A stretch of 64,000 bases of DNA from an uncultured bacterium (GTDB lineage: Bacteria; Patescibacteriota; Minisyncoccia; Phycocordibacterales; Phycocordibacteraceae): assembly GCA_937879955.1 (NCBI GenBank), contig CALFMK010000001.1:91504-155503 (forward strand), in the 5' to 3' direction. Numbering within the stretch: the stretch's first letter is position 1; the number at the start of each line of letters is the position of its first letter. The translations under genes were made by a program, and so were the position numbers. This document shows, in pieces, positions 1 through 41,512 of the stretch. Under the pieces are notes generated by a model. It searched no databases, had not been told where the DNA came from, and was given only the letters and a program-made list of their open reading frames with translations.

Positions 1-339
1 AGTACCAGGTGCCGCGCGCCTGCCCCGTGACCGTGAACGACTTGCCGGTAACGGCGCCCGGCGTCGGGTTCGAGACGGCGATCATATCCGCTGATGCATT
101 CAGGTAGGTCGGGGTAGGCAGAGGGAGCTCCTCGGCGTAGGTGCGCCCGTCCGGCGTCCTGCACTGGCGAGGATAGCTCTCCATCACCGGATAGAGCGCC
201 GCGCAGTCCTCGAAGGACAGTACCTCGGGCTCGACGGCCGTCTCCTCGTGCTTCCCGAGGATGCCGGTCCCGACCACGATGCCGACGATCGCGATGAGCG
301 CGACGACGATGAATACGAAGGTTCTGAAGTGGATCATGA
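1..339 (-). CDS. Hypothetical signal-anchored protein. The 5' part only is in the window; the gene continues past the left edge.
   Basis: A minus-strand ATG at 337-339 opens an ORF reading MIHFRTFVFIVVALIAIVGIVVGTGILGKHEETAVEPEVL..., which is an N-terminal TM anchor. It runs off the window edge. It lies 9 nt downstream of the msrA stop, so it is probably co-transcribed. Confidence 0.45.
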
Positions 340-347
340 TCCGCGAA

Positions 348-863
348 TTATTTCAGGTATGAGTCGAAGTATATGGCATGGCAGGTGTAGCCGCCCGGGT
401 TCTTCTGGAGATAGTCCTGGTGGTAGTCCTCTGCCGGATAGAACGCCGTGAAGGGCTCGAGCGTCGTCACGACCGGGTCCTTCCAGCGCTTCGAGTCGTT
501 CACGATGCGGATCATGTCCTCGGCGTCCTGCTTCTCGTCCGCGTCCTGGTAGAAGATGGCGGAACGGTACGACGTGCCGACATCGTTCCCTTGCCGGTTC
601 AGGGTCGTCGGGTTGTGGATCTGGAAGAAGAAGTCGAGGAGCTGCAGGTACGAGATGACGGTCGGGTCGTACTCCACCTCGAGCGCCTCGGCGTGTCCGG
701 GATGGTTCTCGTACGTCGGGTCCGCGTTCTCCCCTCCGGTATACCCCGCTTCCGTCTTTATGATTCCTGGCTGCTGCCGCACGAGCTCCTCGAGTCCCCA
801 GAAGCACCCTCCCGCGATGTAGGCTTTCTTGGTCGTCATACTCATGAAGACGGCGTTAGGCAC
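348..863 (-). CDS. msrA: Peptide methionine sulfoxide reductase MsrA
   Basis: 171-aa ORF. It carries the GCFWG active-site motif ([13 protein letters not shown]) and is MsrA-like over its full length. Confidence 0.9.
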
Positions 864-872
864 CTAGTATTA

Positions 873-2099
873 CTACCCGGCCTGATACGCGCGGCGACGC
901 GCGTTCCAGAGGATGGTCCAGGCGATCATGATGATGAGGCCGCCTGCGATGAACGGCGACGTGAGGCCGATCACGCCGGTGCCGATGCCGGCGATGAGCG
1001 GCACGATACCCTGCGCGAGCGCCATCAAGGACCCGTTGATGCCGAGCGCTGCGCCCTGCTTGTCAGGCGACACGCTCTTGCTCACGAGCGAGCTGATGTT
1101 CGCGAACGCGAGGCCCTGCGGCACGGCCATGATCGGCACGAGGAGGAACAGGAGCAGGTTGCTGCCGACGAACGGGTACGCCACGATGGTCGCGGCCACG
1201 ATCGGGAATCCGACGAGGAGGATGCGGCGCTCCTTGAAGCGCTTGGCTACCTGCGGCAGGATCACGAGCTGCGTCACGGCGATTGACGCGCCCACCACCG
1301 CGAAGAAGGTGCCGATGCCGGCCTCAGAGTAGCCGTAGCGCACCGCGAGCAGCACGCCGATGAAGCTCGTGAAGAACGCGAAGCCGCTCATGTAGAGGAA
1401 GCTCGTGAGGTAGACCGGGAGCGCGTCCTTGTCCTGGAACGCCTGCTTGATGTTCTGGAGGCCCTTGAAGATATGGAAGTTCGCGCGGGATGCCGCGGTC
1501 GTCTTCCTGGTCTCAGGCAGGAAGAGCGCGATGAAGACGAGGTTCAGGATGCCGAGCGCGCCGGCGAATACGAACGGCATGGCTGCGTGGCTGAAAGTCG
1601 CGGCGATGATGCCGCCGAGCAAGGGGCCGAGGATGAAGCCGATGCCGAACGCCGCGCCGATGAGGCCGAAGTTTTTCGCGCGGTCCTCAGGCGCGCTCAC
1701 GTCCGCGATCGAGGCCTGGGCGATGCTCAGGTTCGCTGCCGCGAGGCCCGCGAGGATTCTCGCCACGAAGAGCACCGCGAGGGACGCCATCTCGATGCCG
1801 AACCCGAAGAGCAGGTTCGAGAACGCGAGCACGCCCACGCCTATCGTGAGGAGGCGCTTGCGGCCGTACACGTCGGAGAGCTCGCCCAGGAGCGGCGCGG
1901 CGAGGAACTGCATGAGGCCGAACACGGCCGTGATGGCGCCCGCGAGGAAGTACTGGGCCGAGACCGAGTATCCGTAGAGCATGAACGTCGGCGACGTCGG
2001 GTCGGTGAAGATCGCCGGCAGGACCGGGATCAGGATGCCCACGCTGATCGTATCGAGGAGGAGCGTGAGGAAGAGCACCAATAATGGCTTATTTTTCAT
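873..2099 (-). CDS. MFS transporter, a drug:H+ antiporter or TetA-like efflux pump
   Basis: 408 aa with about 12 TM segments. It has MFS signature motifs ([19 protein letters not shown]) and a typical DHA1 architecture. Confidence 0.8.
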
Positions 2100-2122
2100 A
2101 GGATTATGCGTTAGGCGGGCTG

Positions 2123-2449
2123 CTAGGAATTGCGGATATCGAGCACAGGAGCAATAGGCTCTTCGACGATGTTCACGACCGTCGAGTCAGGAGGCGTGGC
2201 GAGCTGCTCGGCCAGGCGGCGGTTCTCCTTCTTGAGTCCCATGATCTTGAGGCTGTCCCCGATCGCGGACGGGATGGAGACGAGGAGGCTCACGATGACG
2301 CCGAGCGCGAACGCGATGAGGATGAGGAGCGCGAGCGAGCTCTCGAACTGCCAGCCGAGGAACGACAGCGCCACCACGGCGGTGTTCTGGAGGGCGAATA
2401 ACAGGGCTGCGGCGCCGAGCAGGAAGCCGAGGATAAGTGAAAGTATCAT
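2123..2449 (-). CDS. LapA-domain (DUF1049) small inner-membrane protein
   Basis: The tracked ORF is 2123..2518. The internal Met (MILSLILGFLLGAAALL...) gives a roughly 108-aa protein with two TM helices and a charged tail, which is typical of the LapA family. The shorter start also avoids overlap with the neighbouring gene. Confidence 0.55.
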   Translation of the reverse strand: MILSLILGFLLGAAALLFALQNTAVVALSFLGWQFESSLALLILIAFALGVIVSLLVSIPSAIGDSLKIMGLKKENRRLAEQLATPPDSTVVNIVEEPIAPVLDIRNS

Positions 2450-2501
2450 GCCTCCAGTATACAGGAAGGGTTCATGAAGGATGCGTGGAGGGTGCGTACG
2501 G

Positions 2502-2930
2502 CTACTTCCAGAGGCCAAACGGCTTCGTGAGAGCCTTTATCTGCTCGTTCTCTCCGAAGACGCCGAGCCCGAGGAGCTCTATCTCGCCCGACGGCTTCGC
2601 CCTAAGGCTCTCCTCGAGCTCCCGGTCGTCGCTGTGGTCTATCATATTGCGGGCGAATGCCAGGTACAGCACGCCCTCCTTTCGTGCCTCGCTCAAAGCC
2701 TCATGGAGCGCCTCGGACGAATCCGCGCTCTTGAGGATGATCGGATACTGCGAATTCCTCGGGAACGCCACCCCGTCTGCAGCGATGAAGGCGTCACCGG
2801 TATCGAAATCCTCCCCAAGCCTGTTCCCGAGGTAGGCCGCGATGTGGGCTATAGCGTTCGCTGCCTGCCATCCCTCGATATCCTTCCGTACTACGATCGT
2901 CAGCCTCTTGGTGAAATCTTGCTCGGACAT
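2502..2930 (-). CDS. DUF2000-family protein
   Basis: 142-aa ORF reading MSEQDFTKRLTIVVRKDIEGWQAANAIAHIAAYLG.... This matches the conserved pattern of the DUF2000 family. Confidence 0.55.
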   Translation of the reverse strand: MSEQDFTKRLTIVVRKDIEGWQAANAIAHIAAYLGNRLGEDFDTGDAFIAADGVAFPRNSQYPIILKSADSSEALHEALSEARKEGVLYLAFARNMIDHSDDRELEESLRAKPSGEIELLGLGVFGENEQIKALTKPFGLWK

Positions 2931-2939
2931 ACCTGAAGG

Positions 2940-3803
2940 TTAGCACTCCCTCGAGCAGAACACGCTCCTGTCGCTCGAGCACCCTTCGCAGACGATGAAG
3001 TGCTCGTGACAGAAGTCGTTCGCGCAGTTCACGTACTTCTCTGCTTTCGTACCGCACAGGTGGCAGACGCCGATGATCTCCCTATCGCCGCCGAAGTGCA
3101 TGGTCTTGCGTTTGTCGAAGGTGTAGAGCGAGCCGAGGAAGTCCTCTCCCGGGTACTTCTCCATGTAGCCGTGCATGCCGTTCTCGAGCTGGTACACGTC
3201 GCTGAACCCGTTCTCGAGAAGGAACGCGGACATCTTCTCGCAGCGTACGCCGCCGGTGCAGACCGTGAGCACGGTCTTGTCCTTCAGGCTCTCGAGCTTC
3301 GGGAGCGCCTTCGGGAGATCGCGCGAGTTCTCGAGCCCCGGGTTCACCGAGCCCTTGAAATGCCCGGAACGGAACTCGTAGTCGTTGCGCATGTCGACGA
3401 TCACGAAGTCCTTCTCCTCCTCGAACCAGCGCTTCAATTCCTCGGCCGGAAGATGGGTGCCGGTGCGCTTGGTCGGATCGATGGACGCCGGGAACTGCGT
3501 GCCCACGATCTCGTTGCGCACCTTCACGGAGAGCTTCGGGAACGCGTCTCCGGTCCCCTCGCTCCTCTTCACGTTCATGTCGCTGAATCGCGCATCCTCA
3601 AGGAGTTCCTCGGCGAACGCCTCGGTGTCCTCGTAGGAGCCCTCGACGGTCCCGTTCAGGCCTTCCTTCGCCACGAGGATGCGTCCGAGAAGGCCGTGCG
3701 CTGCTGCCCGCTCCCGGATCCACGCGGAAAACGCCTCCGGGTCCTCGACCGTGACGTACTTATAGAACAAGAGGATCTGCGTCTGTGCGGTAGCTGCCTG
3801 CAT
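2940..3803 (-). CDS. trhO: tRNA uridine(34) hydroxylase TrhO, a rhodanese-domain protein of the YceA/UPF0176 family
   Basis: 287 aa. It has a rhodanese fold with the diagnostic CTGGVRCEK active-site loop and a C-terminal Cys-rich tail (CHLCG...CEGC). Confidence 0.85.
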   Translation of the reverse strand: MQAATAQTQILLFYKYVTVEDPEAFSAWIRERAAAHGLLGRILVAKEGLNGTVEGSYEDTEAFAEELLEDARFSDMNVKRSEGTGDAFPKLSVKVRNEIVGTQFPASIDPTKRTGTHLPAEELKRWFEEEKDFVIVDMRNDYEFRSGHFKGSVNPGLENSRDLPKALPKLESLKDKTVLTVCTGGVRCEKMSAFLLENGFSDVYQLENGMHGYMEKYPGEDFLGSLYTFDKRKTMHFGGDREIIGVCHLCGTKAEKYVNCANDFCHEHFIVCEGCSSDRSVFCSREC

Positions 3804-3846
3804 GGCGTATAGACGGGATTCTACCCTAAAATCCCGGACCTGGGGA

Positions 3847-6153
3847 CTAGAGCGCGTTCAGGGCGGCTCGGGTCGCAGGGCCCACGGAACCCACGGCCTC
3901 GAGACCGAGGGACGCCTGGAAGCCCGCTACCGCCTGGAGCGTGACCTGGCCGAAGTAGCCGGTTATCTCCGGGAATACATAGAAGCCCTTCGCTTTCAGG
4001 ATCTCCTGGAGCGCGGATACGTCAGGGCCGGTGCTACCGAGCCCGAGCGAACGCGTGAACGTGACGCCTGACGGGATGCCGAGAACCTCGAGCACGAAGG
4101 CCGGGAGAACGATTCCCTTTTCCTGTGCCGAGAGGAAGAGCGTGCGGTTGTCGAGTATGAGCTGCGTGAGAGCGGTCGTCTGAGACTGCGCTGCGTTCAC
4201 TACGGAATCCGCGAGCGGAGAGACGATCCGGACGACGCTCTGGCCGGAACGATGGCTCGACGAGCTTTCCTCCTCGGGTTCCGGAGCAGGGTCAGGGTCC
4301 GCCTGATACTCGTATGCGCCCATGTCGCGCATAGAGCCGAACTGCCCGTTGCCAAGGATGTCGGTCGTGAACGGAGTGCTCGTCCCTGCATTTATGGCGG
4401 GAGAGGATCCGAGAAGGCGGAAGTTCTCGTCACCCGCATCGACGAACTTAGGGTCTGCAGACAGCGAGTGGGCGCCCTGCGTGAAGCCCGCGCCGCTCCA
4501 GTTCGCAGTGCCTGCATCGTACGCCAGGTTGTAGTCTTCGGTAAGCGAGGCGGAGGAAAGCTTGCTGATGCCGATGTCGAAGCCGGAGATGATGTTATTC
4601 ATCGCGATGTTGCTTGCCGGGCTCGCCATCTCTATCGCGATGCCCATGTGCGAAGGATTGTAGAACGTGTTGTTGTAGACGCGCGAGCTCGCGTTCTGGC
4701 TCATCGTGACTGAGCCTACCGTCCCGGTGGTGTCATGGACGAACACGTTGTTGTAGACGTCGACCGTCGTCGTGCTCACGTTCGTCACGCCTCCCTTCTT
4801 GTTGTTCTTTATGAATGAATTGCTCACGCTGCCCGTCGAGAAGTCGTGCCACGAGAGGCCGTCGCCGTCGCTCCCGAGGCCGTTGATGCCGTTCTCTTCC
4901 GTAGTGACCCTGTCGAATACCGTATGGACCGAATCCCTGATGTTGAGGCCGTCGTTCGTGTTCAGGTTCGCGGTCGTGTTCGTGGTCGTCGCGTACCCCG
5001 CTCCTATGTACATGATGCCGTTCGATGACGTGGCAACCGTGCCGTTCGAGTTGAACGTCGAATCCTCGATGAGGATGGTCGAGCTGCTGTCGAGGCCCTG
5101 GTACAGGAGGCCGTGATCGACGTTGTCCGACGAGCGCACGTTCGAGAGGTGTATGTTCGGGCCCGCTGCCGCCACGAACTGGATCCCTACGGACCCGCTC
5201 CCGGTCACGGTGGTGTCCGCTATGGTTACGCCCTCGGTGAAGCCGTCGAAGCGCAGTCCCCTGGCTGCGCTGTTCGTTATGGTCGCATCCGTGAGGCTCA
5301 CGTTCTTGAGGCGATTTGCGAAGTAGATGCCGTTGATGCCACTCCCGCTGACCGTGATGTCGCTCAGGGTCGCATTCTCAAGCCGTAGCAGGTTCATGCC
5401 CTGGAGCGAAGGGGCGTTCACCGTGATCCCGTCCATAACCATCCCGGAGGAAGTGGCCGCGGATGTGAACCGGATGCCGTATTGGAAATTGCTCACCGTG
5501 ATGTCCTCGAAGCGATCGTTCGTGGACGTGCCCTGGTGCGTGAAGGCGGCGGTGGAGCCGGGTCCTCCGGTGAAGGTAAGGTCATCGAAGACGTTCCCGA
5601 CCGTAGTCCCTCCTTGGATGTTTATGCCCCTTGTGCTCGACGCGAAGTTTATCCGCTGGAACGTGTTCCCCGTGTAGGTGCCCGTGAAGAGGAAGATGTC
5701 CTCGGTCGAGGCTCCCCGGAGCTCGAGATCCTGGATGGTTATGTAGGAGGCGCTGTTCCGGAGGTCGAACGACCGGCTCTGGCCCGTGGACAGGATGACG
5801 GGAGCCGTGCCTGTCCCGTATGCGCCGACGATGATCGGATTCCCGTTCGTGCCGCTCTCGTCCAGAAGCGATATGGTGCCGGCATGCGTCTGTCCGCGGT
5901 TGAAGAGGATCTGGTCGCCGGCCGCGAAGGTCGTCGAGTTAATCTTCGTCGCATTGAGCCATGGCGTGCTCGTGGAGGTGCCGTCGTTCGTGTTGTTCCC
6001 GATGGCGGAATCCACGTAATAGGTCGCCGCAGAAGCGGCTGACGGCAGCAGGAGCGCGCATGAGAGCGCCATGACGGCGATCTTCCGTATCATCCCTTTC
6101 ATAGCTTCAAGTATAGCAGCAGGGCGCCCGCGGCGGCCCTGCTTTGTGGACAC
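3847..6153 (-). CDS. Secreted right-handed parallel beta-helix repeat protein with a C-terminal peptidoglycan-binding domain
   Basis: 768 aa. The N-terminus has a signal peptide (MALSCALLLPSAASA). The middle holds many beta-helix repeats that are N/T/G/S-rich, such as IQDLELRG... and NFAS.... The C-terminus has a PG_binding_1-like segment (GPDVSALQEILKAKGFY...VGPATRAALNAL). Confidence 0.7.
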   Translation of the reverse strand: MSTKQGRRGRPAAILEAMKGMIRKIAVMALSCALLLPSAASAATYYVDSAIGNNTNDGTSTSTPWLNATKINSTTFAAGDQILFNRGQTHAGTISLLDESGTNGNPIIVGAYGTGTAPVILSTGQSRSFDLRNSASYITIQDLELRGASTEDIFLFTGTYTGNTFQRINFASSTRGINIQGGTTVGNVFDDLTFTGGPGSTAAFTHQGTSTNDRFEDITVSNFQYGIRFTSAATSSGMVMDGITVNAPSLQGMNLLRLENATLSDITVSGSGINGIYFANRLKNVSLTDATITNSAARGLRFDGFTEGVTIADTTVTGSGSVGIQFVAAAGPNIHLSNVRSSDNVDHGLLYQGLDSSSTILIEDSTFNSNGTVATSSNGIMYIGAGYATTTNTTANLNTNDGLNIRDSVHTVFDRVTTEENGINGLGSDGDGLSWHDFSTGSVSNSFIKNNKKGGVTNVSTTTVDVYNNVFVHDTTGTVGSVTMSQNASSRVYNNTFYNPSHMGIAIEMASPASNIAMNNIISGFDIGISKLSSASLTEDYNLAYDAGTANWSGAGFTQGAHSLSADPKFVDAGDENFRLLGSSPAINAGTSTPFTTDILGNGQFGSMRDMGAYEYQADPDPAPEPEEESSSSHRSGQSVVRIVSPLADSVVNAAQSQTTALTQLILDNRTLFLSAQEKGIVLPAFVLEVLGIPSGVTFTRSLGLGSTGPDVSALQEILKAKGFYVFPEITGYFGQVTLQAVAGFQASLGLEAVGSVGPATRAALNAL

Positions 6154-6160
6154 GATTCCC

Positions 6161-7018
6161 TTAGCGGATGAGCGTCCATGCGACGCCGCGGATAGGATTC
6201 GGCGCCTTCACGGATCCATTGCTCGTCACGCCCGTGACGTCGAGGAAGAGCTGCTTCCCGAGGTCCGTGGTGGCGGTCTTGCTCAGGATCGCCTTGATCG
6301 TGAAGATGCGGACCGTCCCGCTCTCGATGGTGGCCGCAAGCGGCACGAACGCGAGACCGGCCTTGAACTGCTTCGCGCCCTCGGTGCCGCCGATGGTCGC
6401 GCGGGAGCCGCCCTTGTCGTCGCTCGTCGAGAACCCGATGACGCTGTCGCCGGACGCCGAGCCGTTCTGCTTGAGCGTGAAGCCTTCGAGGTTCACGGGG
6501 CTGCCGCTCACGTTCTGCACCTTCAGGTACGCGACCGGGACGGATGCGCCCATATTCGCTGCACCTCCGGAGAGGAGCGGGAGCGCGTCGACGCTGATGA
6601 GGCCGCTGCTGCGCGTGGCGCTCGAAGACGTCCCGCCTCTAACGCCAATCGTGAGCGTGCCTTGCGCGAGTGTCGTCTGCTTCCTGTCCTTGGCGTCATA
6701 CACGGTGACAGCGTAGGTGCCGTCCGCGAGCTTCTTCGAGGACGTCACCTTCCAATGGTCGTTCCTAACCTTAAGAACCTTGCTCTTGAAGAGACGCTTG
6801 CCTGATGCGTCCCTGATCTCGACGCGCACGGTCTTCACGTTCGTCGCGTCGCCGGTAAGGGAAGGCCTGGTCTTCGCGGTCGTGAGCGATGCCGCGTCTA
6901 TGGTCGCCGCCGCCTTGGTCGCGGTAACGGTCATTGCTGCGGATGCGCCGAACGGAAGGATGCCCGTGCCGAGTAGCGCGAGCGAGAGGACGAGCGCACG
7001 GAGATGGTTCGTAGTCAT
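6161..7018 (-). CDS. Secreted hypothetical protein, probably an Ig-like surface protein
   Basis: 285 aa with a signal peptide (LVLSLALLGTGILPFGASAA). The body is Thr/Ser/Lys-rich and beta-rich. It sits 8 nt upstream of the beta-helix gene, so the two probably form an operon. Confidence 0.6.
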   Translation of the reverse strand: MTTNHLRALVLSLALLGTGILPFGASAAMTVTATKAAATIDAASLTTAKTRPSLTGDATNVKTVRVEIRDASGKRLFKSKVLKVRNDHWKVTSSKKLADGTYAVTVYDAKDRKQTTLAQGTLTIGVRGGTSSSATRSSGLISVDALPLLSGGAANMGASVPVAYLKVQNVSGSPVNLEGFTLKQNGSASGDSVIGFSTSDDKGGSRATIGGTEGAKQFKAGLAFVPLAATIESGTVRIFTIKAILSKTATTDLGKQLFLDVTGVTSNGSVKAPNPIRGVAWTLIR

Positions 7019-7095
7019 GCGAGGAGTATAGCACGGTTCCCTGGACTTATGTGCATAAGTATCGCGTAATCTTCATGAACATGAGGCCTTCACGA

Positions 7096-7130
7096 GAAAC
7101 GCCCCTGACGAATGCCAGGGGCGTTTCGTA
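7096..7130. terminator. Intrinsic terminator hairpin, bidirectional
   Basis: A 10-bp stem (AACGCCCCTG / CAGGGGCGTT) with an A-tract on the 5' side and a T-tract on the 3' side. It lies downstream of the minus-strand gene that ends at 7147. Confidence 0.5.
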
Positions 7131-7146
7131 TCGAACGATCTCCGGA

Positions 7147-7380
7147 TTAGACGCCGCCGACCGAGTCGCCGATCACCGGGTCGGAGGTGACCTCGATGAG
7201 CATCACGCCGCTGTGCGTGCTTATGCCAGGAGCGGTCGCGAGCGCGGTGTTCGCGGTCGCGGCCTCGGTCGTCATGACCTCGCCTGCATTGTTAACGTAT
7301 GCGTAGGTCGCTGCGAGCGATACGCCCGGGACGGCGACGACCGCCGCGAGAGCGAACGCACCGAGAAGTAGTTTCTTCAT
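7147..7380 (-). CDS. Small secreted hypothetical protein
   Basis: 77 aa with a signal peptide (MKKLLLGAFALAAVVAVPGVSLA). It is followed by the terminator at 7096-7130. Confidence 0.45.
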   Translation of the reverse strand: MKKLLLGAFALAAVVAVPGVSLAATYAYVNNAGEVMTTEAATANTALATAPGISTHSGVMLIEVTSDPVIGDSVGGV

Positions 7381-7481
7381 AGCAATCTAGTGGGTTACTT
7401 AATCGTTAGTATTGCTACTAACCATGCGCGCAATAGTACGCGGACCCTCATGAAGCGAGAATGAACGCTTCATGTTCGATG

Positions 7482-7730
7482 CTAGTCCCCTTCCGTGCCG
7501 AGATGTCGGGTGAAATGCTGCTTTATCGTCGTGTCGAGCGCCTTGCTGAACTCGATAGCGTGCTTCGGAGACAGGACGATCTCGGAGACGAGCTGTCCGG
7601 TGGTCGTGTTCGGGCGGACGTAGGCGAACTGGATGATGACGGAATCGTCGGATACGGTCACCTGCGTCGCGTTCACGAAGCTCGCGAGGGTGCTGGTAGG
7701 GGCGGTGATGGCTATCTGCTTCTGTTCCAT
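7482..7730 (-). CDS. DUF3467-family small protein
   Basis: 82 aa reading ...SFVNATQVTVSDDSVIIQFAYVRP...VLSPKHAIEFSKAL.... This resembles DUF3467. It is on the same strand as, and tightly spaced with, the neighbouring small genes. Confidence 0.5.
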   Translation of the reverse strand: MEQKQIAITAPTSTLASFVNATQVTVSDDSVIIQFAYVRPNTTTGQLVSEIVLSPKHAIEFSKALDTTIKQHFTRHLGTEGD

Positions 7731-7742
7731 AGTAGTGAAAGG

Positions 7743-7940
7743 TTATCCGGCAACGGCGCGCGTGCTCTCGATGAGATGTGCGACGAACGCGCTCGCGATC
7801 TCCCAGCCCTCCTTCACGTACGACCAGACGAAGGTGAAGTTGTCCTGCCCTGCCGGGGACGTGGCGACGTCCCGGATCGAGATGCCGAAGTACGAGAGCG
7901 CGAGTATCAGGATTATCACGAGGATGATGAATCGGACCAT
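7743..7940 (-). CDS. Small membrane protein, hypothetical
   Basis: 65 aa with one N-terminal TM helix (FIILVIILILALSYFG). It lies 12 nt upstream of the DUF3467 gene. Confidence 0.4.
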   Translation of the reverse strand: MVRFIILVIILILALSYFGISIRDVATSPAGQDNFTFVWSYVKEGWEIASAFVAHLIESTRAVAG

Positions 7941-8028
7941 ATGCTCCCAGTATACCCGTCCCGGGTCGTAAAGCGCACGTCCTGAAGTTGTGTAACGGTA
8001 TGATCGGAACGCGGGTATACTGGCGGCT

Positions 8029-8679
8029 ATGCCTACGAAGAAGACCGTCCTCGACGAGCGCGTGAGCGCCGCCCTGCTCCACCTGAAGAAGGCGGACCCG
8101 GTCCTCTATAAGGCCGCGCTCGCCCACAAGGCCGACCTTTCTGCCCGCTACGCGAAGAAGAAACGACATACCAGGGAGAGGCTCTTCGCCGCGCTCGCGA
8201 GCTCCGTGGCGAGCCAGCAGCTCTCCACGAAGGCGGCGGACACCATCTGGGCGAGGCTCGAGGCCGCCTGCGGAGGAGCGGTGACGCCAGAAGCCATACA
8301 GAAGCTCCGCCTCCCTTCCATGCGGAAGGCCGGGCTCTCAGGCGCGAAGGCGAAGACCCTGAAGGAGCTCTCGAACGCCGTGCTCGCAGGAGACCTCGAC
8401 CTGCTCGCGCTCCGGCGCCTTCCGGAAGAAGAAGCCGTCACGAAGCTCTCCAGCGTCTGGGGCATCGGCCGCTGGACCGCCGAGATGTTCCTCATGTTCG
8501 CGCTCGAGCGCGAGGACGTGTTCTCGCCCGGAGACCTGGGACTCCGGCGGTCCATGGAATCGATCTACGGACTCCCGAAGGACGTGCATGTCCGCGAACT
8601 CGAAGCCATAGCGCTCAGGTGGTCTCCGCACCGGACCTTCGCGTCGAGGGCGCTCTGGCGCATCCGCGACTCGGCATAG
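8029..8679 (+). CDS. alkA: DNA-3-methyladenine glycosylase II, HhH-GPD superfamily (AlkA-like)
   Basis: 216 aa. It has the helix-hairpin-helix motif and the catalytic Asp (WGIGRWTAEMFLMFAL...DVFSPGDLGLRR), which aligns with the AlkA catalytic domain. Confidence 0.85.
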   Translation: MPTKKTVLDERVSAALLHLKKADPVLYKAALAHKADLSARYAKKKRHTRERLFAALASSVASQQLSTKAADTIWARLEAACGGAVTPEAIQKLRLPSMRKAGLSGAKAKTLKELSNAVLAGDLDLLALRRLPEEEAVTKLSSVWGIGRWTAEMFLMFALEREDVFSPGDLGLRRSMESIYGLPKDVHVRELEAIALRWSPHRTFASRALWRIRDSA

Positions 8680-38484: not shown

Positions 38485-38991
38485 TTATCGCGTCGTGAGG
38501 TAGGTTCCCGCGAGCGGCGCGAGGAACCACCAGAAGAAGTACTGGTCCGGTGCGAACAAGGCGTCCAAGGATGGCGAGAGCGGGATCACGGCCGCGATGT
38601 TGAGGACGTGGTACCCGAGCGCGAGCACGAACCCGCCTGTCACGAGCGCGAGGATGGCAAGAGCCAGCGGATGGATGCGCATCGTGCCTGCGGACGCCAC
38701 GCGACGGAGCAGGACATACGGGAAGAATGTGAATGCCGCGAAGAGCGCGATGCCGCAGACCGCGCGCACGAGCGGCGTATCCCCTACGATAACCATCTCC
38801 TTGTACGGGAAGACCGTGAAGATGGCGAAGCCCACATAGAGCGAGAGGATGAGCGATATGAGGAGCGAGCGCCCTGCCCGGAGTGCGAAGAAGAACAAGA
38901 GCGCAGCGAGCACGAGCAGCACGAGGAAGTTCCCGACGAAGCCGACGATGTCGCCAAGGCCACCGGTTGTGAACGAATTGAGTGCATCCAT
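38485..38991 (-). CDS. Membrane protein, hypothetical
   Basis: 168 aa with 5 TM segments. A TATACT -10 element sits 8 nt upstream of the ATG with no Shine-Dalgarno sequence, so the transcript is probably leaderless. It lies upstream of the ABC exporter. Confidence 0.55.
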   Translation of the reverse strand: MDALNSFTTGGLGDIVGFVGNFLVLLVLAALLFFFALRAGRSLLISLILSLYVGFAIFTVFPYKEMVIVGDTPLVRAVCGIALFAAFTFFPYVLLRRVASAGTMRIHPLALAILALVTGGFVLALGYHVLNIAAVIPLSPSLDALFAPDQYFFWWFLAPLAGTYLTTR

Positions 38992-39036
38992 ATCTGACAG
39001 TATACCCCTCGTACCGTATCAATTCATAAAAATGTT

Positions 39037-39056
39037 CCCCGCCATCTCTGGCGGGG
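39037..39056. repeat. GC-rich hairpin (TTCCCCGCC...GGCGGGG), the left flank of the mazF-like gene
   Basis: CCCCGCCA-TCTC-TGGCGGGG. It is similar to the hairpin on the other side of the gene. Confidence 0.45.
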
Positions 39057-39171
39057 CCGCGGCGAGTGCCGAAAGGCAGGGCTTGGTACACACGTGCCCT
39101 GCACATAAATACTATCATTCCTTTAGGGAAATTTCAGGATATGCCTACGTTGCAAACGCTACTATCGCCTC

Positions 39172-39579
39172 ATGCAGCAGAAGGATTATGCGCTCTGGCA
39201 TCCCATAAAAGTACGACTGAACGCGATCCCGGGATCAGTATTCTTCCATGAGCGAGAGGTCTGGTGGTGTGCAATCGGAGAGAACGTGGGATTTGAACAG
39301 GACGGTACGAGTCCATTATTTACCCGACCAGTTCTTATCTTGAAGAAGTTCAGCGCTGACACCTGTCTCATCGTGCCTCTCACGACGAAAGCCAAGAAGG
39401 GAAAACACTACTTCCCTCTCGGAGTGGTCGCTCGATCAGAGGCGGTAGCTCTCTTATCTCAGATACGTTCAATCGATAGGAGGCGCCTTACGAGCAAGCT
39501 CGCTACGGTCGATAAGGATACTTTCCAGATGCTTGTGAAGGCGATAATTGCGACATGTCTGCCATCACTGGATACATAA
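39172..39579 (+). CDS. MazF/PemK/EndoA-family endoribonuclease toxin-like protein, solitary
   Basis: 135 aa. The sequence G.EQDG..RPVLIL...T.IVPLTT.AKK...FPL....S.ALLSQIRSIDRRRLTSKLATVDKDTF aligns with B. subtilis EndoA (YdcE). It is about 48% GC against about 65% for the neighbours. No antitoxin ORF is apparent. Confidence 0.6.
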   Translation: MQQKDYALWHPIKVRLNAIPGSVFFHEREVWWCAIGENVGFEQDGTSPLFTRPVLILKKFSADTCLIVPLTTKAKKGKHYFPLGVVARSEAVALLSQIRSIDRRRLTSKLATVDKDTFQMLVKAIIATCLPSLDT

Positions 39580-39586
39580 ACGTTTT

Positions 39587-39609
39587 CCCCCGCCCTTTCG
39601 GGGCGGGGG
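39587..39609. repeat. GC-rich hairpin (TTTTCCCCCGCCC...GGGCGGGGG), the right flank of the mazF-like gene
   Basis: CCCCCGCCC-TTTCG-GGGCGGGGG. This is the same core as the left-flank hairpin. Confidence 0.45.
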
Positions 39610-39682
39610 CAGGCCGAAGCCATTACACGTACTCTAGCAAGACCAAGGCGCTAGTCAACCAAAGGTTTGTGGAAAGCGTTAT

Positions 39683-40756
39683 CTAAAGTCCTTCTGCCTT
39701 CAGCTCCTCGATCGCCTTCTTCGCCTTCCCTGAGATCTTCTTCGGGAGCGTCGCGACGAGACGGATGAGGAGGTCGCCTTCGTTCCCGTCGACGGAGACG
39801 CCCTTGTTCTTCAGGCGGAGCGTCTGCTGCGCCTCGTTCATGGCCGGGATCTTAACCTCGAGCTTCTTGCCGTCCACGGTCTCGATGGTGGCGGTGGTAC
39901 CAAGGAGCGCATCTGTGAGCTTCATTGGCATCGTCATGACGAGGTTCATGCCCTCCTTCTTGAAGACCGGATGCGGCTTCACATGGACCTTGATGTAGAG
40001 GTCGCCGGACGCGCCTCCCTTCACGGCTTCGCCACGGCCCGTCATGCGCATCATTACGCCGTCGTCGATTCCCTTCGGGATCGTAATCTTGATCTCCTCC
40101 TCCTTGCGGAGCACGCCGTGCCCGGAGCAGGTCGGGCACTTCTCCTTTGGGATCTTGCCGGACCCTTCGCAGGTCTGGCAGGTGCGGACGCTCGTGAAGC
40201 TTCCGAGCGGCGAGTTGCGCGTCTCGTGCAGCTTGCCCTGGCCGTTGCAGGTCTTGCAGGTTTCCATCGCGGTGCCCGGCTTCGCGCCCGAGCCTTCGCA
40301 GGTGTCGCAGGTTCCGGTCTTCGTTATGAGGACGGAACGGTCGCCGCCGAGGATGGATTCCTTGAAGGAGACCTCGATGTCGATGGAGATGTCGCGGCCG
40401 CGCTTCGCCTGCTGGCGGCGTCCGCCTCCGAATATGTCCCCGAAGCCCTCGAAGAGGTCGTTCAGGTCGAACTCCACGCCGCCGTTGCCGAATCCGCCGT
40501 ACTGCGACGGGTCGAACCCGCCGAAGCCGCCCGCGCCTGGACCGCCGCCGTTGAAGGTCTGTCCGTACGAGTCGTACTCGCGGCGCTTCTTCTCGTCCGA
40601 GAGCGTGCTGTATGCCTCCGTTATCTCCTTGAACTTCGCCTCGTCGCCGCCCTTGTCGGGGTGGTGCTTCTGCGCGAGCTTGCGGAACGCCTTCTTCACG
40701 TCGTCCTGCGTCGCCTTCTTGTCTACACCCAGGATGTCGTAATAGTTCTTCGCCAT
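39683..40756 (-). CDS. dnaJ: Chaperone DnaJ
   Basis: The internal start is MAKNYYDILGV. It has a J-domain with HPD, a G/F region, four CxxCxGxG zinc-finger repeats and a C-terminal domain. The tracked 503-aa ORF has a 146-aa artefactual extension. Confidence 0.95.
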   Translation of the reverse strand: MAKNYYDILGVDKKATQDDVKKAFRKLAQKHHPDKGGDEAKFKEITEAYSTLSDEKKRREYDSYGQTFNGGGPGAGGFGGFDPSQYGGFGNGGVEFDLNDLFEGFGDIFGGGRRQQAKRGRDISIDIEVSFKESILGGDRSVLITKTGTCDTCEGSGAKPGTAMETCKTCNGQGKLHETRNSPLGSFTSVRTCQTCEGSGKIPKEKCPTCSGHGVLRKEEEIKITIPKGIDDGVMMRMTGRGEAVKGGASGDLYIKVHVKPHPVFKKEGMNLVMTMPMKLTDALLGTTATIETVDGKKLEVKIPAMNEAQQTLRLKNKGVSVDGNEGDLLIRLVATLPKKISGKAKKAIEELKAEGL

Positions 40757-40857: not shown

Positions 40858-41385
40858 CTAGCAGGCGCCGCGACGGTCCATGGTGTATTGCGCGTTGAAG
40901 CATCGGCCGAACAGGTCCCAGTACTCGCCTGCCGGACGTGCGATCCAGAGGTAGCGGCCGAGCCTGCTGATGTAGCCCACGTTCACCTCGCTCCGCTCCC
41001 GGTACCCGTAGGTCGGCGCGATGCGGTAGTACCGGCACTGGCCGGGAGTCTGCGGGCAGTTGACCCGGTCGTTCGGCGCGACAGCCACGAAGCCGCCGAT
41101 GCAGGACGATTCCCCTCTGGTGTTGATGGGACAGTGCCTGAAGACGATGCTTTCCCAGACGGTCTGCGGGCTGGCGATCGTGTTCGCCGGGCACTCGGGC
41201 CTGCCGGTGTATTTGTTGACAAGGACTGAATTGCAGCCGCCCGGACCTGACATGTTCTGCGTGGTCTGGATGGTCGTGCCGTTGAGCTTGAACTCATAGC
41301 CGCGCGCCTGGGCGCTTGTGACGGCCGGCGCAAGCATAGCGCAGGCGACAGCGAGGCCAAGCAGAGCCTTGACGGTGTTGCGCAT
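40858..41385 (-). CDS. Secreted cysteine-rich hypothetical protein inserted between dnaK and dnaJ
   Basis: The internal start MRNTVKALLGLAVACAMLAPAVTSAQA is a signal peptide. The mature protein of about 150 aa has 10 Cys. The GC content is native. Confidence 0.55.
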   Translation of the reverse strand: MRNTVKALLGLAVACAMLAPAVTSAQARGYEFKLNGTTIQTTQNMSGPGGCNSVLVNKYTGRPECPANTIASPQTVWESIVFRHCPINTRGESSCIGGFVAVAPNDRVNCPQTPGQCRYYRIAPTYGYRERSEVNVGYISRLGRYLWIARPAGEYWDLFGRCFNAQYTMDRRGAC

Positions 41386-41512
41386 GGAAAGATCTCCGAA
41401 TTCCGGTGTCCCGAAGGACGCGAATTGACGTTGGAGATATAATATACCATAACTATGCAAAAGTCAATGGCCGGAGCGGGTGCTCCGGCCATTAATCTAT
41501 ATTCAAGAAACC

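Follow-up and report, generated by a model that had tools for sequence, protein, structure and literature searches.

What holds a MazF-like toxin in check when no antitoxin protein is encoded beside it? The question is raised by a 64-kb stretch of the genome of an uncultured bacterium of the Patescibacteriota (contig CALFMK010000001.1, positions 91,504 to 155,503; hereafter the window), in which a gene for a 135-amino-acid (aa) PemK/MazF-fold protein (39172..39579, + strand) is accompanied by two hairpins rich in guanine and cytosine (GC). From the sequence alone this locus had been described as a solitary toxin gene in a small inserted cassette. We lean towards a compact mobile toxin-antitoxin cassette whose antidote is a convergent antisense small RNA; both the antitoxin role of this RNA and the route of neutralisation are what we infer, because the toxin lacks a protein partner and is tightly linked to a structured RNA gene equipped with a promoter. 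Such a cassette would insert a MazF-family toxin gene together with a small RNA gene that lies directly 3′ of it and is transcribed toward it. The comparisons below draw on 80 further loci of the family from metagenomes and two from named metagenome-assembled genomes (MAGs); the Rifle and Hainich aquifers supplied most of the homologous loci.

A PemK/MazF-family toxin

The open reading frame (ORF) of 135 aa is a relative of MazF and EndoA, as the sequence-only reading had recognised. It matches Pfam PF02452 (PemK_toxin) over residues 28-126 with an E value of 4e-13 and 49.9 bits, against a curated cut-off of 23.1, and it matches the sequences of the solved B. subtilis EndoA/YdcE, B. anthracis MoxT and E. 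coli MazF proteins, the best E value being 4e-6 for EndoA/YdcE. Since it scores 25.9 bits against 120 for the NCBIfam MazF equivalog, it is not an equivalog of the E. coli protein. An AlphaFold2 model (predicted local distance difference test, pLDDT, 83.8) places a helix at residues 6-18 ahead of the MazF barrel, and the top Foldseek matches to this model in the PDB are MoxT, S. aureus MazF and B. subtilis MazF (template modelling score 0.73-0.79, target-normalised; probability 1.00); in the model the protein adopts the SH3-like β-barrel fold of MazF and Kid. Among 34 family members R52-P53 is invariant and T71 nearly so, and their counterparts in the alignment with B. subtilis EndoA are R25 and T48, which we take to be the catalytic pair of that enzyme. 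The loop N(V/I)GFEQDG has an invariance that is unusual for the MazF family. The N-terminal extension pointed out in the sequence-only reading is present and conserved, with a length of about 25 aa rather than 22; its W9 and K13 are invariant in the family, and judged by the alignment it is a family character and not an annotation artefact. The ORF at 39172-39579 is best described as encoding a MazF/PemK-fold toxin of the endoribonuclease type, its toxicity being presumed from this kinship.

The nearest non-identical homologues are 60% identical and 128-141 aa long; their sources are groundwater metagenomes and bins assigned to Patescibacteria, Paceibacterota or Parcubacteria. When 1.84 billion cluster representatives were searched with a profile, 372 clusters (at 50% identity) matched with E ≤ 1e-30 and 1954 with E ≤ 1e-10, and by these matches the toxin subfamily appears to be large and centred on Patescibacteria. 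PADLOC defence-system models gave no match to the locus, and phage records held no homologue of the toxin.

The low GC content of the gene, estimated earlier at 48% against 65% in its neighbours, was approximately right: the gene has 50.0% GC and its flanks 62.1%, a difference of 12 points in a window of 61.8% GC overall. Across 78 loci, whose hosts range from 33 to 62% GC, the toxin gene lies on average 5 points and up to 14 points below its flanks, which suggests either that the gene is often acquired from donors of low GC or that its composition is constrained. These features bear on the possibility that the protein is no free toxin and needs no antitoxin, the N-terminal helix serving as a built-in inhibitor or retargeting the protein to housekeeping RNA processing. 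Such a role would suit a conserved extension that is predicted to be helical and a family that is very widespread, whereas the patchy distribution, the low GC (mean −5 points), the insertion polymorphism, the tandem arrays and the plasmid relatives are traits of accessory, selfish genes, and the catalytic-type residues have been kept; we consider a housekeeping or self-inhibited protein quite improbable.

Upstream of the gene, a −10-like box (TACTAT, 39160..39165, + strand) ends 6 nucleotides (nt) before the ATG and is presumed to be the toxin promoter. In 46 of 76 family loci the toxin ATG is preceded by a TAnnnT box that ends no more than 14 nt away, mostly at 6-8 nt, and a Shine-Dalgarno-like sequence precedes the gene in only two of the 76 and is absent from the window. 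Because the box stands so close to the start codon and Shine-Dalgarno sequences are almost lacking, a leaderless toxin mRNA is implied. TG-extended −10 elements 6-7 nt before an ATG, with no Shine-Dalgarno sequence, are also frequent in other genes of this lineage, for example TATACT-7 nt-ATG at a membrane-protein gene of the window (38991-39020) and TGCTATGCT-6 nt-ATG in its relatives (L008-L022, around 5980-6003), suggesting that leaderless mRNAs are common there.

Absence of a protein antitoxin

That no antitoxin ORF lies upstream or downstream, as had been stated from the sequence alone, holds for proteins both in the window and at about 80 homologous loci. In the window, the ORF list and Pfam give no candidate protein antitoxin adjoining the toxin gene. 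Two small overlapping ORFs, of 61 aa at 39066-39251 and of 54 aa at 39459-39623 (− strand), have no Pfam match or no conservation. The second of these starts just after the antisense promoter described below and was examined as an antitoxin, and it was rejected: its ATG is not kept, the family having both ACAAAC and ACAAAT at this position, its frames are not kept open, and the region covaries in the manner of an RNA. Among the homologous loci no neighbour recurs, the 96 flanking ORFs all being singletons in an all-against-all BLASTP comparison; the orientation and spacing of the neighbours differ, no small ORF is found repeatedly, and none of the other frames over the toxin gene, sense or antisense, stays open from locus to locus. 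Going by these comparisons, the toxin family as a whole lacks an adjacent protein antitoxin.

A convergent small RNA gene

When the family loci are lined up at the toxin stop codon, about 100 nt past it are conserved family-wide. On the strand opposite the toxin this module consists, in order, of a DnaA-box-like 9-mer, TTGAC(A/T) and TAnnnT with 16-18 nt between them, frequently ending in TG, then 12 nt containing ACAAAY, a first hairpin (P2), a linker of 2-4 nt, a second hairpin (P1), and a tail of GAAAAC(A/U)UUUU followed by the complement of the toxin stop codon (A/U-rich). P2, with the form G(G/C)C-UUCG-G(C/G)C, is a cUUCGg tetraloop hairpin that is near-invariant in the family, and P1 is a perfect stem of 5-11 bp that is present in all 62 distinct loci and differs in sequence from one to the next. 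A σ70-like promoter on the minus strand (TTGAC[AT]/TTGCnn, 16-18 nt and mostly 16 or 17, TAnnnT) is found in 58 of the 62, and the distance from the end of its −10 element to P2 is 12-13 nt in 56 of these 58, the exceptions being the window (9 nt) and L030 (10 nt).

The complete module of the window occupies 39577..39660 (− strand) and is matched by the rebuilt covariance model R2 with 59.9 bits (E 5.7e-11 over 238 kb) and by the first model R1, which was seeded with six loci, with 36.6 bits. Its −35 hexamer is TTGACT (39653..39658, − strand) and, after a 16-nt spacer, its TG-extended −10 hexamer is TAGAGT (39631..39636, − strand), which was also found independently by a promoter scan; P2 follows as GGC-UUCG-GCC, a cUUCGg hairpin (39612..39621, − strand), and P1 is the hairpin at 39587..39609. 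Upstream of the −35 lies the DnaA-box-like 9-mer, cTtTCCACA on the minus strand (39668..39676), with 2 mismatches to TTATCCACA as read by eye.

Several features indicate on which strand the module is read. The loops of P1 on the minus strand (n = 62) are GCAA in 23 loci, GAAA in 10, UUCG in seven, GAGA in two, and GCGA and GUAA in one each, so that 44 of the 62 have an exact stable tetraloop (46 have GNRA or UUCG if CGAAA and CGCAA, which are C-G-closed GNRA loops, are counted); on the toxin strand the same loops would read UUGC, UUUC and CGAA, which are not special. The covariance model gives 72 matches at E ≤ 0.01 in 366 kb, every one of them antisense to the toxin and 70 of them directly 3′ of a toxin homologue. 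Standard pairs fill 97.4% of the cells, compared with 68% in shuffles and 43-62% with the partners slid, and compensatory double changes occur in 12 of 12 base pairs; that these counts come from an alignment fitted to the model, and hence lean to that structure, is a point against our reading. In the minus-strand reading G·U wobbles outnumber A·C mismatches by 38 to 11. Because the promoter agrees with the wobble bias and with tetraloops specific to one strand, the RNA is taken to be made from the minus strand, and we regard the existence of a convergent antisense small RNA gene as highly probable. The firing of the promoter and the 3′ end of the RNA are what we infer from these sequence features. 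No matching family was found in Rfam 15 for the window, ten related loci or the Nitratiruptor plasmid locus L103, and a full-text literature search found no description of the module.

The DnaA-box-like 9-mer lies 4-8 nt upstream of the −35 in either orientation (71 modules, L001-L102). It has at most one mismatch to TTATCCACA in 32 of the 71 modules (0.5 in shuffles) and at most two in 56 (6 in shuffles), and may be an operator that ties expression of the RNA to DnaA or to another factor, which hints at a coupling of antitoxin expression to replication status.

In one subfamily (L081, L083, L087, L090, L096, L099), whose proteins end in ...RKxIKDLL*, the last ~30 nt of the toxin ORF hold a further hairpin, P3, with A- and U-tracts, which resembles the intrinsic terminator of a small RNA of ~90 nt. 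Distant relatives of the toxin, about 37% identical, are found on plasmids of Campylobacterota, where they are annotated PemK/MazF without an antitoxin (L103, Nitratiruptor pNitYY0814; L104, Helicobacter suis). At L103 (1474-2134) two hairpins and, on the minus strand, a TTGCAT-17-TATAAT promoter come after the stop codon, with a weak R2 match of 15.3 bits, and a 62-aa ribbon-helix-helix (RHH)-like ORF lies beyond them, just ahead of the rep gene. It may be that the RNA-module arrangement is not confined to Patescibacteria, or that it and protein antitoxins replace each other.

The two GC-rich hairpins

The two hairpins with a common core that the sequence-only reading had described are indeed there, and are the sole two of their kind in the 64 kb. 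Hairpin 1, CCCCGCCA-tctc-TGGCGGGG, has an 8-bp stem (39037..39056, − strand), and hairpin 2, CCCCCGCCC-tttcg-GGGCGGGGG, has a 9-bp GC stem and is the P1 of the complete module (39587..39609, − strand). The pattern CCCGCC-N3-8-GGCGGG occurs only at these two positions, where 0.15 occurrences are expected and none of 100 shuffles has two or more, and the likeness reaches about 15 nt past the stems on both sides (ATTCATAAAAATGTT and ATACATAAACGTTTT on the 5′ side, GGCGGGGCCGCGGCGA and GGCGGGGGCAGGCCGA on the 3′ side).

Around hairpin 1 lies a second, degenerate module (39026..39139, − strand) without a toxin gene. It is the second-best R2 match in the window and 15 relatives' loci, with 19.1 bits and an E value of 0.21 over 238 kb or 7e-4 within 801 nt. 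Its parts are a −10-like TGATAGTAT (39109-39117, − strand), a P2-like TGCC-UUUC-GGCA (39067-39078, − strand) and, as P1, hairpin 1 with the GNRA loop GAGA, followed by AACAUUUUUAU. The degenerate copy and the module of L028, whose toxin is 56% identical to that of the window, have TTCGGCA(C/T)TCGCCGCG(G/A)CCCC in common (TTCGGCAYTCGCCGCGR-CCCC). Because of these matching parts and of this common string, hairpin 1 is best read as the P1 of a degenerate module, which is probably the remnant of an older neighbouring cassette. Another module without a toxin, at L073 (833-913), lies 90 nt past the regular one and could be an orphan RNA antitoxin.

Origins of other kinds had been proposed for the hairpins, among them duplicated target or terminator sequence. 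Both stand at gene ends, and hairpin 1, with its stem followed by AACATTTTTA, fits the pattern of an intrinsic terminator on the minus strand, as would be expected if the hairpins were ordinary terminators, or a duplicated target, that resemble each other by chance or through duplication of the dnaJ terminator. Hairpin 2, however, has no U-tract and fits the terminator pattern on neither strand, the other terminator-like hairpins of the window have unrelated sequences and A/T-extended (A-stem-T) stems, and a P1-type hairpin 3-10 nt past the stop codon recurs at about 60 unrelated loci of the toxin family. Neither hairpin is present at the empty sites of the relatives described below, which already contradicts such an origin, and because both lie within the insert they are not duplicated target sequence; we find this explanation barely credible. 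Nor do the hairpins belong to a genome-wide family resembling repetitive extragenic palindromic (REP) elements, there being two copies in 64 kb and, by the covariance model, none besides these in the window or in the loci of 15 relatives. Of the suggestion that they are cassette-border repeats, the association with the cassette stands, hairpin 1 being the matching stem-loop of a second module copy; a role as target, REP element, attC site or generic terminator does not. Hairpin 1 may serve to end antisense transcription ahead of the membrane-protein gene.

Insertion and mobility of the cassette

In the window the cassette lies between two host genes, dnaJ (39683..40756, − strand; ORF list and relatives' loci), which is convergent with the toxin gene, and a gene for a 168-aa membrane protein (38485..38991, − strand), which is divergent from it. 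The closest relatives of the window are MAGs labelled Patescibacteria or Candidatus Paceibacterota. With the 168-aa protein as query and one genome per species, seven relatives were found, in which the membrane protein is 74-82% identical and DnaK 87-93% identical. In all seven, ~52 nt separate the dnaJ stop codon from the ATG of the membrane-protein gene, compared with 691 nt in the window, and their 12-kb loci contain no toxin homologue. Because of this empty junction, the block of ~640 nt that is absent from the close relatives (~39025..39680, with ends uncertain by ~20-40 nt) is identified as an insertion. The small inserted cassette of the sequence-only reading is borne out in this way, by the comparison with related genomes that had been proposed as its check.

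Other loci reveal more of how the cassette is bounded. Locus-specific direct repeats of host sequence, 17-158 nt long and 85-100% identical, flank it in 15 of 68 other loci (L043, L024, L025, L026, L029, L041, L042, L044, L046, L051, L063, L070, L078, L080 and L094), one segment lying upstream of the toxin gene and the other starting ~95-125 nt past its stop codon; the insert of the window has no flanking duplication. These repeats are far longer than ordinary transposase target duplications. At L043, where the cassette lies between atpG and atpD, the repeats (2949-2997 and 3513-3561) are the last 49 nt of atpG, and the insert between these co-directional host genes holds the antisense promoter and the DnaA-like box. 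Because repeat-bounded inserts, of which this is one example, include the promoter, it belongs to the cassette and was not captured from the host. In the window MAFFT aligned the relatives' membrane-gene promoter with the antisense promoter, and a captured host promoter was accordingly considered as a general explanation and rejected, since the L043 insert and every unit of the tandem arrays carry a promoter of their own. The MAFFT match is attributed to generic promoter similarity, and it leaves the exact boundary of the insert in the window ambiguous.

Cassettes also occur in series. Three diverged toxin paralogues stand in tandem at L091 (229-1856), each with its own module and with a period of ~560 nt, and two paralogues, again each with a module, are found at L063 (2572-3616). 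L039, L071 and L098 likewise have tandem or nearby multiple cassettes. At L004 (GCA_001003005.1, LCNF01000002.1, Zambryskibacteria; 1-8405) the cassette lies within a gene cluster resembling type IV secretion or conjugation systems (type IV secretion pilin-like, TraG-like P-loop, TraC-like and PrgI-like genes), 4 kb from dnaA, rnpA and yidC.

A cassette so clearly mobile, with empty sites, very varied contexts, tandems reminiscent of cassette arrays and direct repeats of 17-158 nt around 15 of 68 other loci, might be expected to carry recombination sites, and the hairpins could act as such at the DNA level, either as folded single-strand sites like integron attC or like the subterminal hairpins of IS200/IS605, REP or palindrome-associated transposable (PATE) elements, in which case they would have been conserved for mobility and not for an RNA; covariation alone does not separate DNA from RNA hairpins. 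It is difficult to reconcile with such sites that a near-consensus promoter at fixed spacing reads into the hairpins, that classic RNA tetraloops appear on one strand only with G·U exceeding A·C by 38 to 11, that in the repeat-bounded inserts the hairpins stand 60-90 nt in from the right end and have no counterpart at the left, and that the 64-kb window has only two copies. An attC site is an imperfect palindrome of 57-141 bp with R/L boxes, placed 3′ of a promoterless ORF in an array beside intI. The locus differs from this: by eye the stem-loops, of ~22 nt, have no extended imperfect palindrome, the contexts are scattered and the ORF has its own −10 element (intI was not searched for). We give little credence to DNA-level sites.

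A possible RNA antitoxin

The toxin taken to be solitary from the sequence alone probably has an adjacent antitoxin, in the form of the promoter-equipped RNA module. Two routes of action can be proposed for an antidote RNA. In a type I-like route it would pair with the 3′ end of the toxin mRNA, to which its predicted sequence is perfectly complementary; in a type III-like route it would bind the toxin protein directly, as in ToxI/ToxN. The near-invariant P2, together with the invariant loop and N-terminal residues of the protein, would fit a conserved RNA-protein interface.

An explanation of another kind is that the toxin is truly solitary and that the 3′ module only regulates or insulates it, antisense interference damping its expression and the hairpins stabilising or ending transcripts; any neutralisation that is needed would fall to a host factor encoded elsewhere, MrpC and MazF-mx of Myxococcus being the example. 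The lack of an adjacent protein antitoxin, the terminator-like pattern of hairpin 1 on the minus strand, the undefined 3′ end of the RNA and the precedent of a solitary MazF (PMC2701414, PMC3874152) all suit this view. Interference alone, however, needs neither a cUUCGg hairpin that stays invariant and always 12 nt from the −10 nor covarying stems capped by GNRA loops. Toxin-less modules persist (39026-39139 in the window; 833-913 in L073), as is typical of retained antitoxins, and many unrelated lineages and contexts harbour the cassette, which on horizontal transfer would have left an unlinked antitoxin behind. A truly solitary toxin is unlikely in our judgement, without being far-fetched.

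Several points weigh against an RNA antitoxin or complicate it. The promoter, the transcription start and the RNA 3′ end are predictions; no consistent terminator of the RNA was found in the subfamily of the window, where P3 is absent; and the 187-nt antisense stretch folds no better than shuffles (z −0.65), P1 and P2 alone being supported. In the window itself the gap from −10 to P2 is 9 nt and not 12, and the DnaA-like box is weak. Simple cis-antisense pairing does not explain why the sequence of P2 is near-invariant. Pairing of the RNA with the 5′ end of the cognate toxin mRNA is no better than with non-cognate ones (−13.5 versus −13.7 kcal/mol), 1516 of 2000 permutations being at least as good, and for this lack of cognate specificity trans-pairing at the 5′ end of the leaderless message was rejected. 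The RHH-like ORF downstream of the Nitratiruptor toxin in L103 could be a protein antitoxin there. SymE apart, the known type I toxins are to our knowledge all small membrane peptides, and we know of no MazF-family toxin with an RNA antitoxin.

Relation to known toxin-antitoxin systems

MazF and PemK are textbook type II toxins and, as far as we know, are always paired with a protein antitoxin. The protein described here has in common with MazF, PemK and EndoA the PF02452 family, the β-barrel fold and the positions of the catalytic Arg and Thr, and differs from them in its extra conserved N-terminal helix and its unusually invariant N(V/I)GFEQDG loop. Unlike MazEF and PemIK, the locus has no gene of MazE/PemI type, either in the window or at about 80 other loci, and has a convergent small RNA gene instead.

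In the type I systems txpA/ratA, bsrG/SR4 and fst RNAI/RNAII, the antisense antitoxin RNAs overlap the 3′ end of the toxin mRNA (PMC3874152). The convergent layout is the same here, so that the RNA would be complementary to the toxin mRNA at its 3′ end; the toxins of those 3′-overlap systems are small membrane peptides, whereas here the toxin is a soluble protein of 135 aa with a ribonuclease fold, and the near-invariant primary-sequence element P2 is not required by the pure antisense action of such systems. The toxin of symE/symR is thought to be a ribonuclease and is controlled in cis by an antisense RNA (PMC3874152). This RNA, SymR, covers the 5′ end and the ribosome-binding site, while the RNA gene here lies 3′ of the toxin. 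The fold of SymE is AbrB/MazE-like and not that of MazF.

The type III toxin ToxN is an endoribonuclease of the CcdB/MazF superfamily that is neutralised directly by RNA (PMC3874152). In ToxIN, and also in CptIN and TenpIN, ToxI consists of tandem repeats upstream on the toxN strand with a terminator in between, whereas the RNA gene here is downstream, on the opposite strand and under its own promoter; no tandem repeats are present in 38800-39900 save for a 12-nt coding repeat in the membrane-protein gene, and a search for direct repeats gave no array. Myxococcus xanthus MazF-mx is a MazF homologue without a linked antitoxin gene (PMC2701414); it is a single chromosomal gene with an unlinked regulator, in contrast to a mobile multi-copy cassette with a linked RNA gene.

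The cassette combines a known toxin fold and a known principle, the RNA antitoxin, in an arrangement that we did not find described. We put forward tentatively, and as somewhat less than probable, that it represents an undescribed class of toxin-antitoxin system in which a MazF endoribonuclease is neutralised by a convergent cUUCGg + GNRA RNA, with a DnaA-box-like operator, in a mobile cassette of ~600 bp that is widespread in Patescibacteria and is accompanied by tandem arrays, orphan RNA genes and duplications of 17-158 nt. If this is true, the replacement of the protein partner by an RNA throughout a large family (at least 372 clusters at 50% identity) would blur the line between types I, II and III, many of the 'orphan' PemK/MazF annotations in genomes of the candidate phyla radiation would be explained, and bacteria in which hardly any small RNAs have been characterised would gain a new structured RNA family. 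An uncharacterised insertion mechanism is suggested, in addition, by the length of the flanking duplications, which are specific to each locus.

Flanking genes

On one side of the insertion, a gene for an ABC (ATP-binding cassette) exporter follows the 168-aa membrane-protein gene. On the other side, an ORF of 200 aa (40858-41460, − strand) lies between dnaK and dnaJ; the locus spacing in the relatives suggests that they too have a gene at this position, and upstream of it they carry a strong promoter-like host sequence, for example at 4137-4175 in L009.

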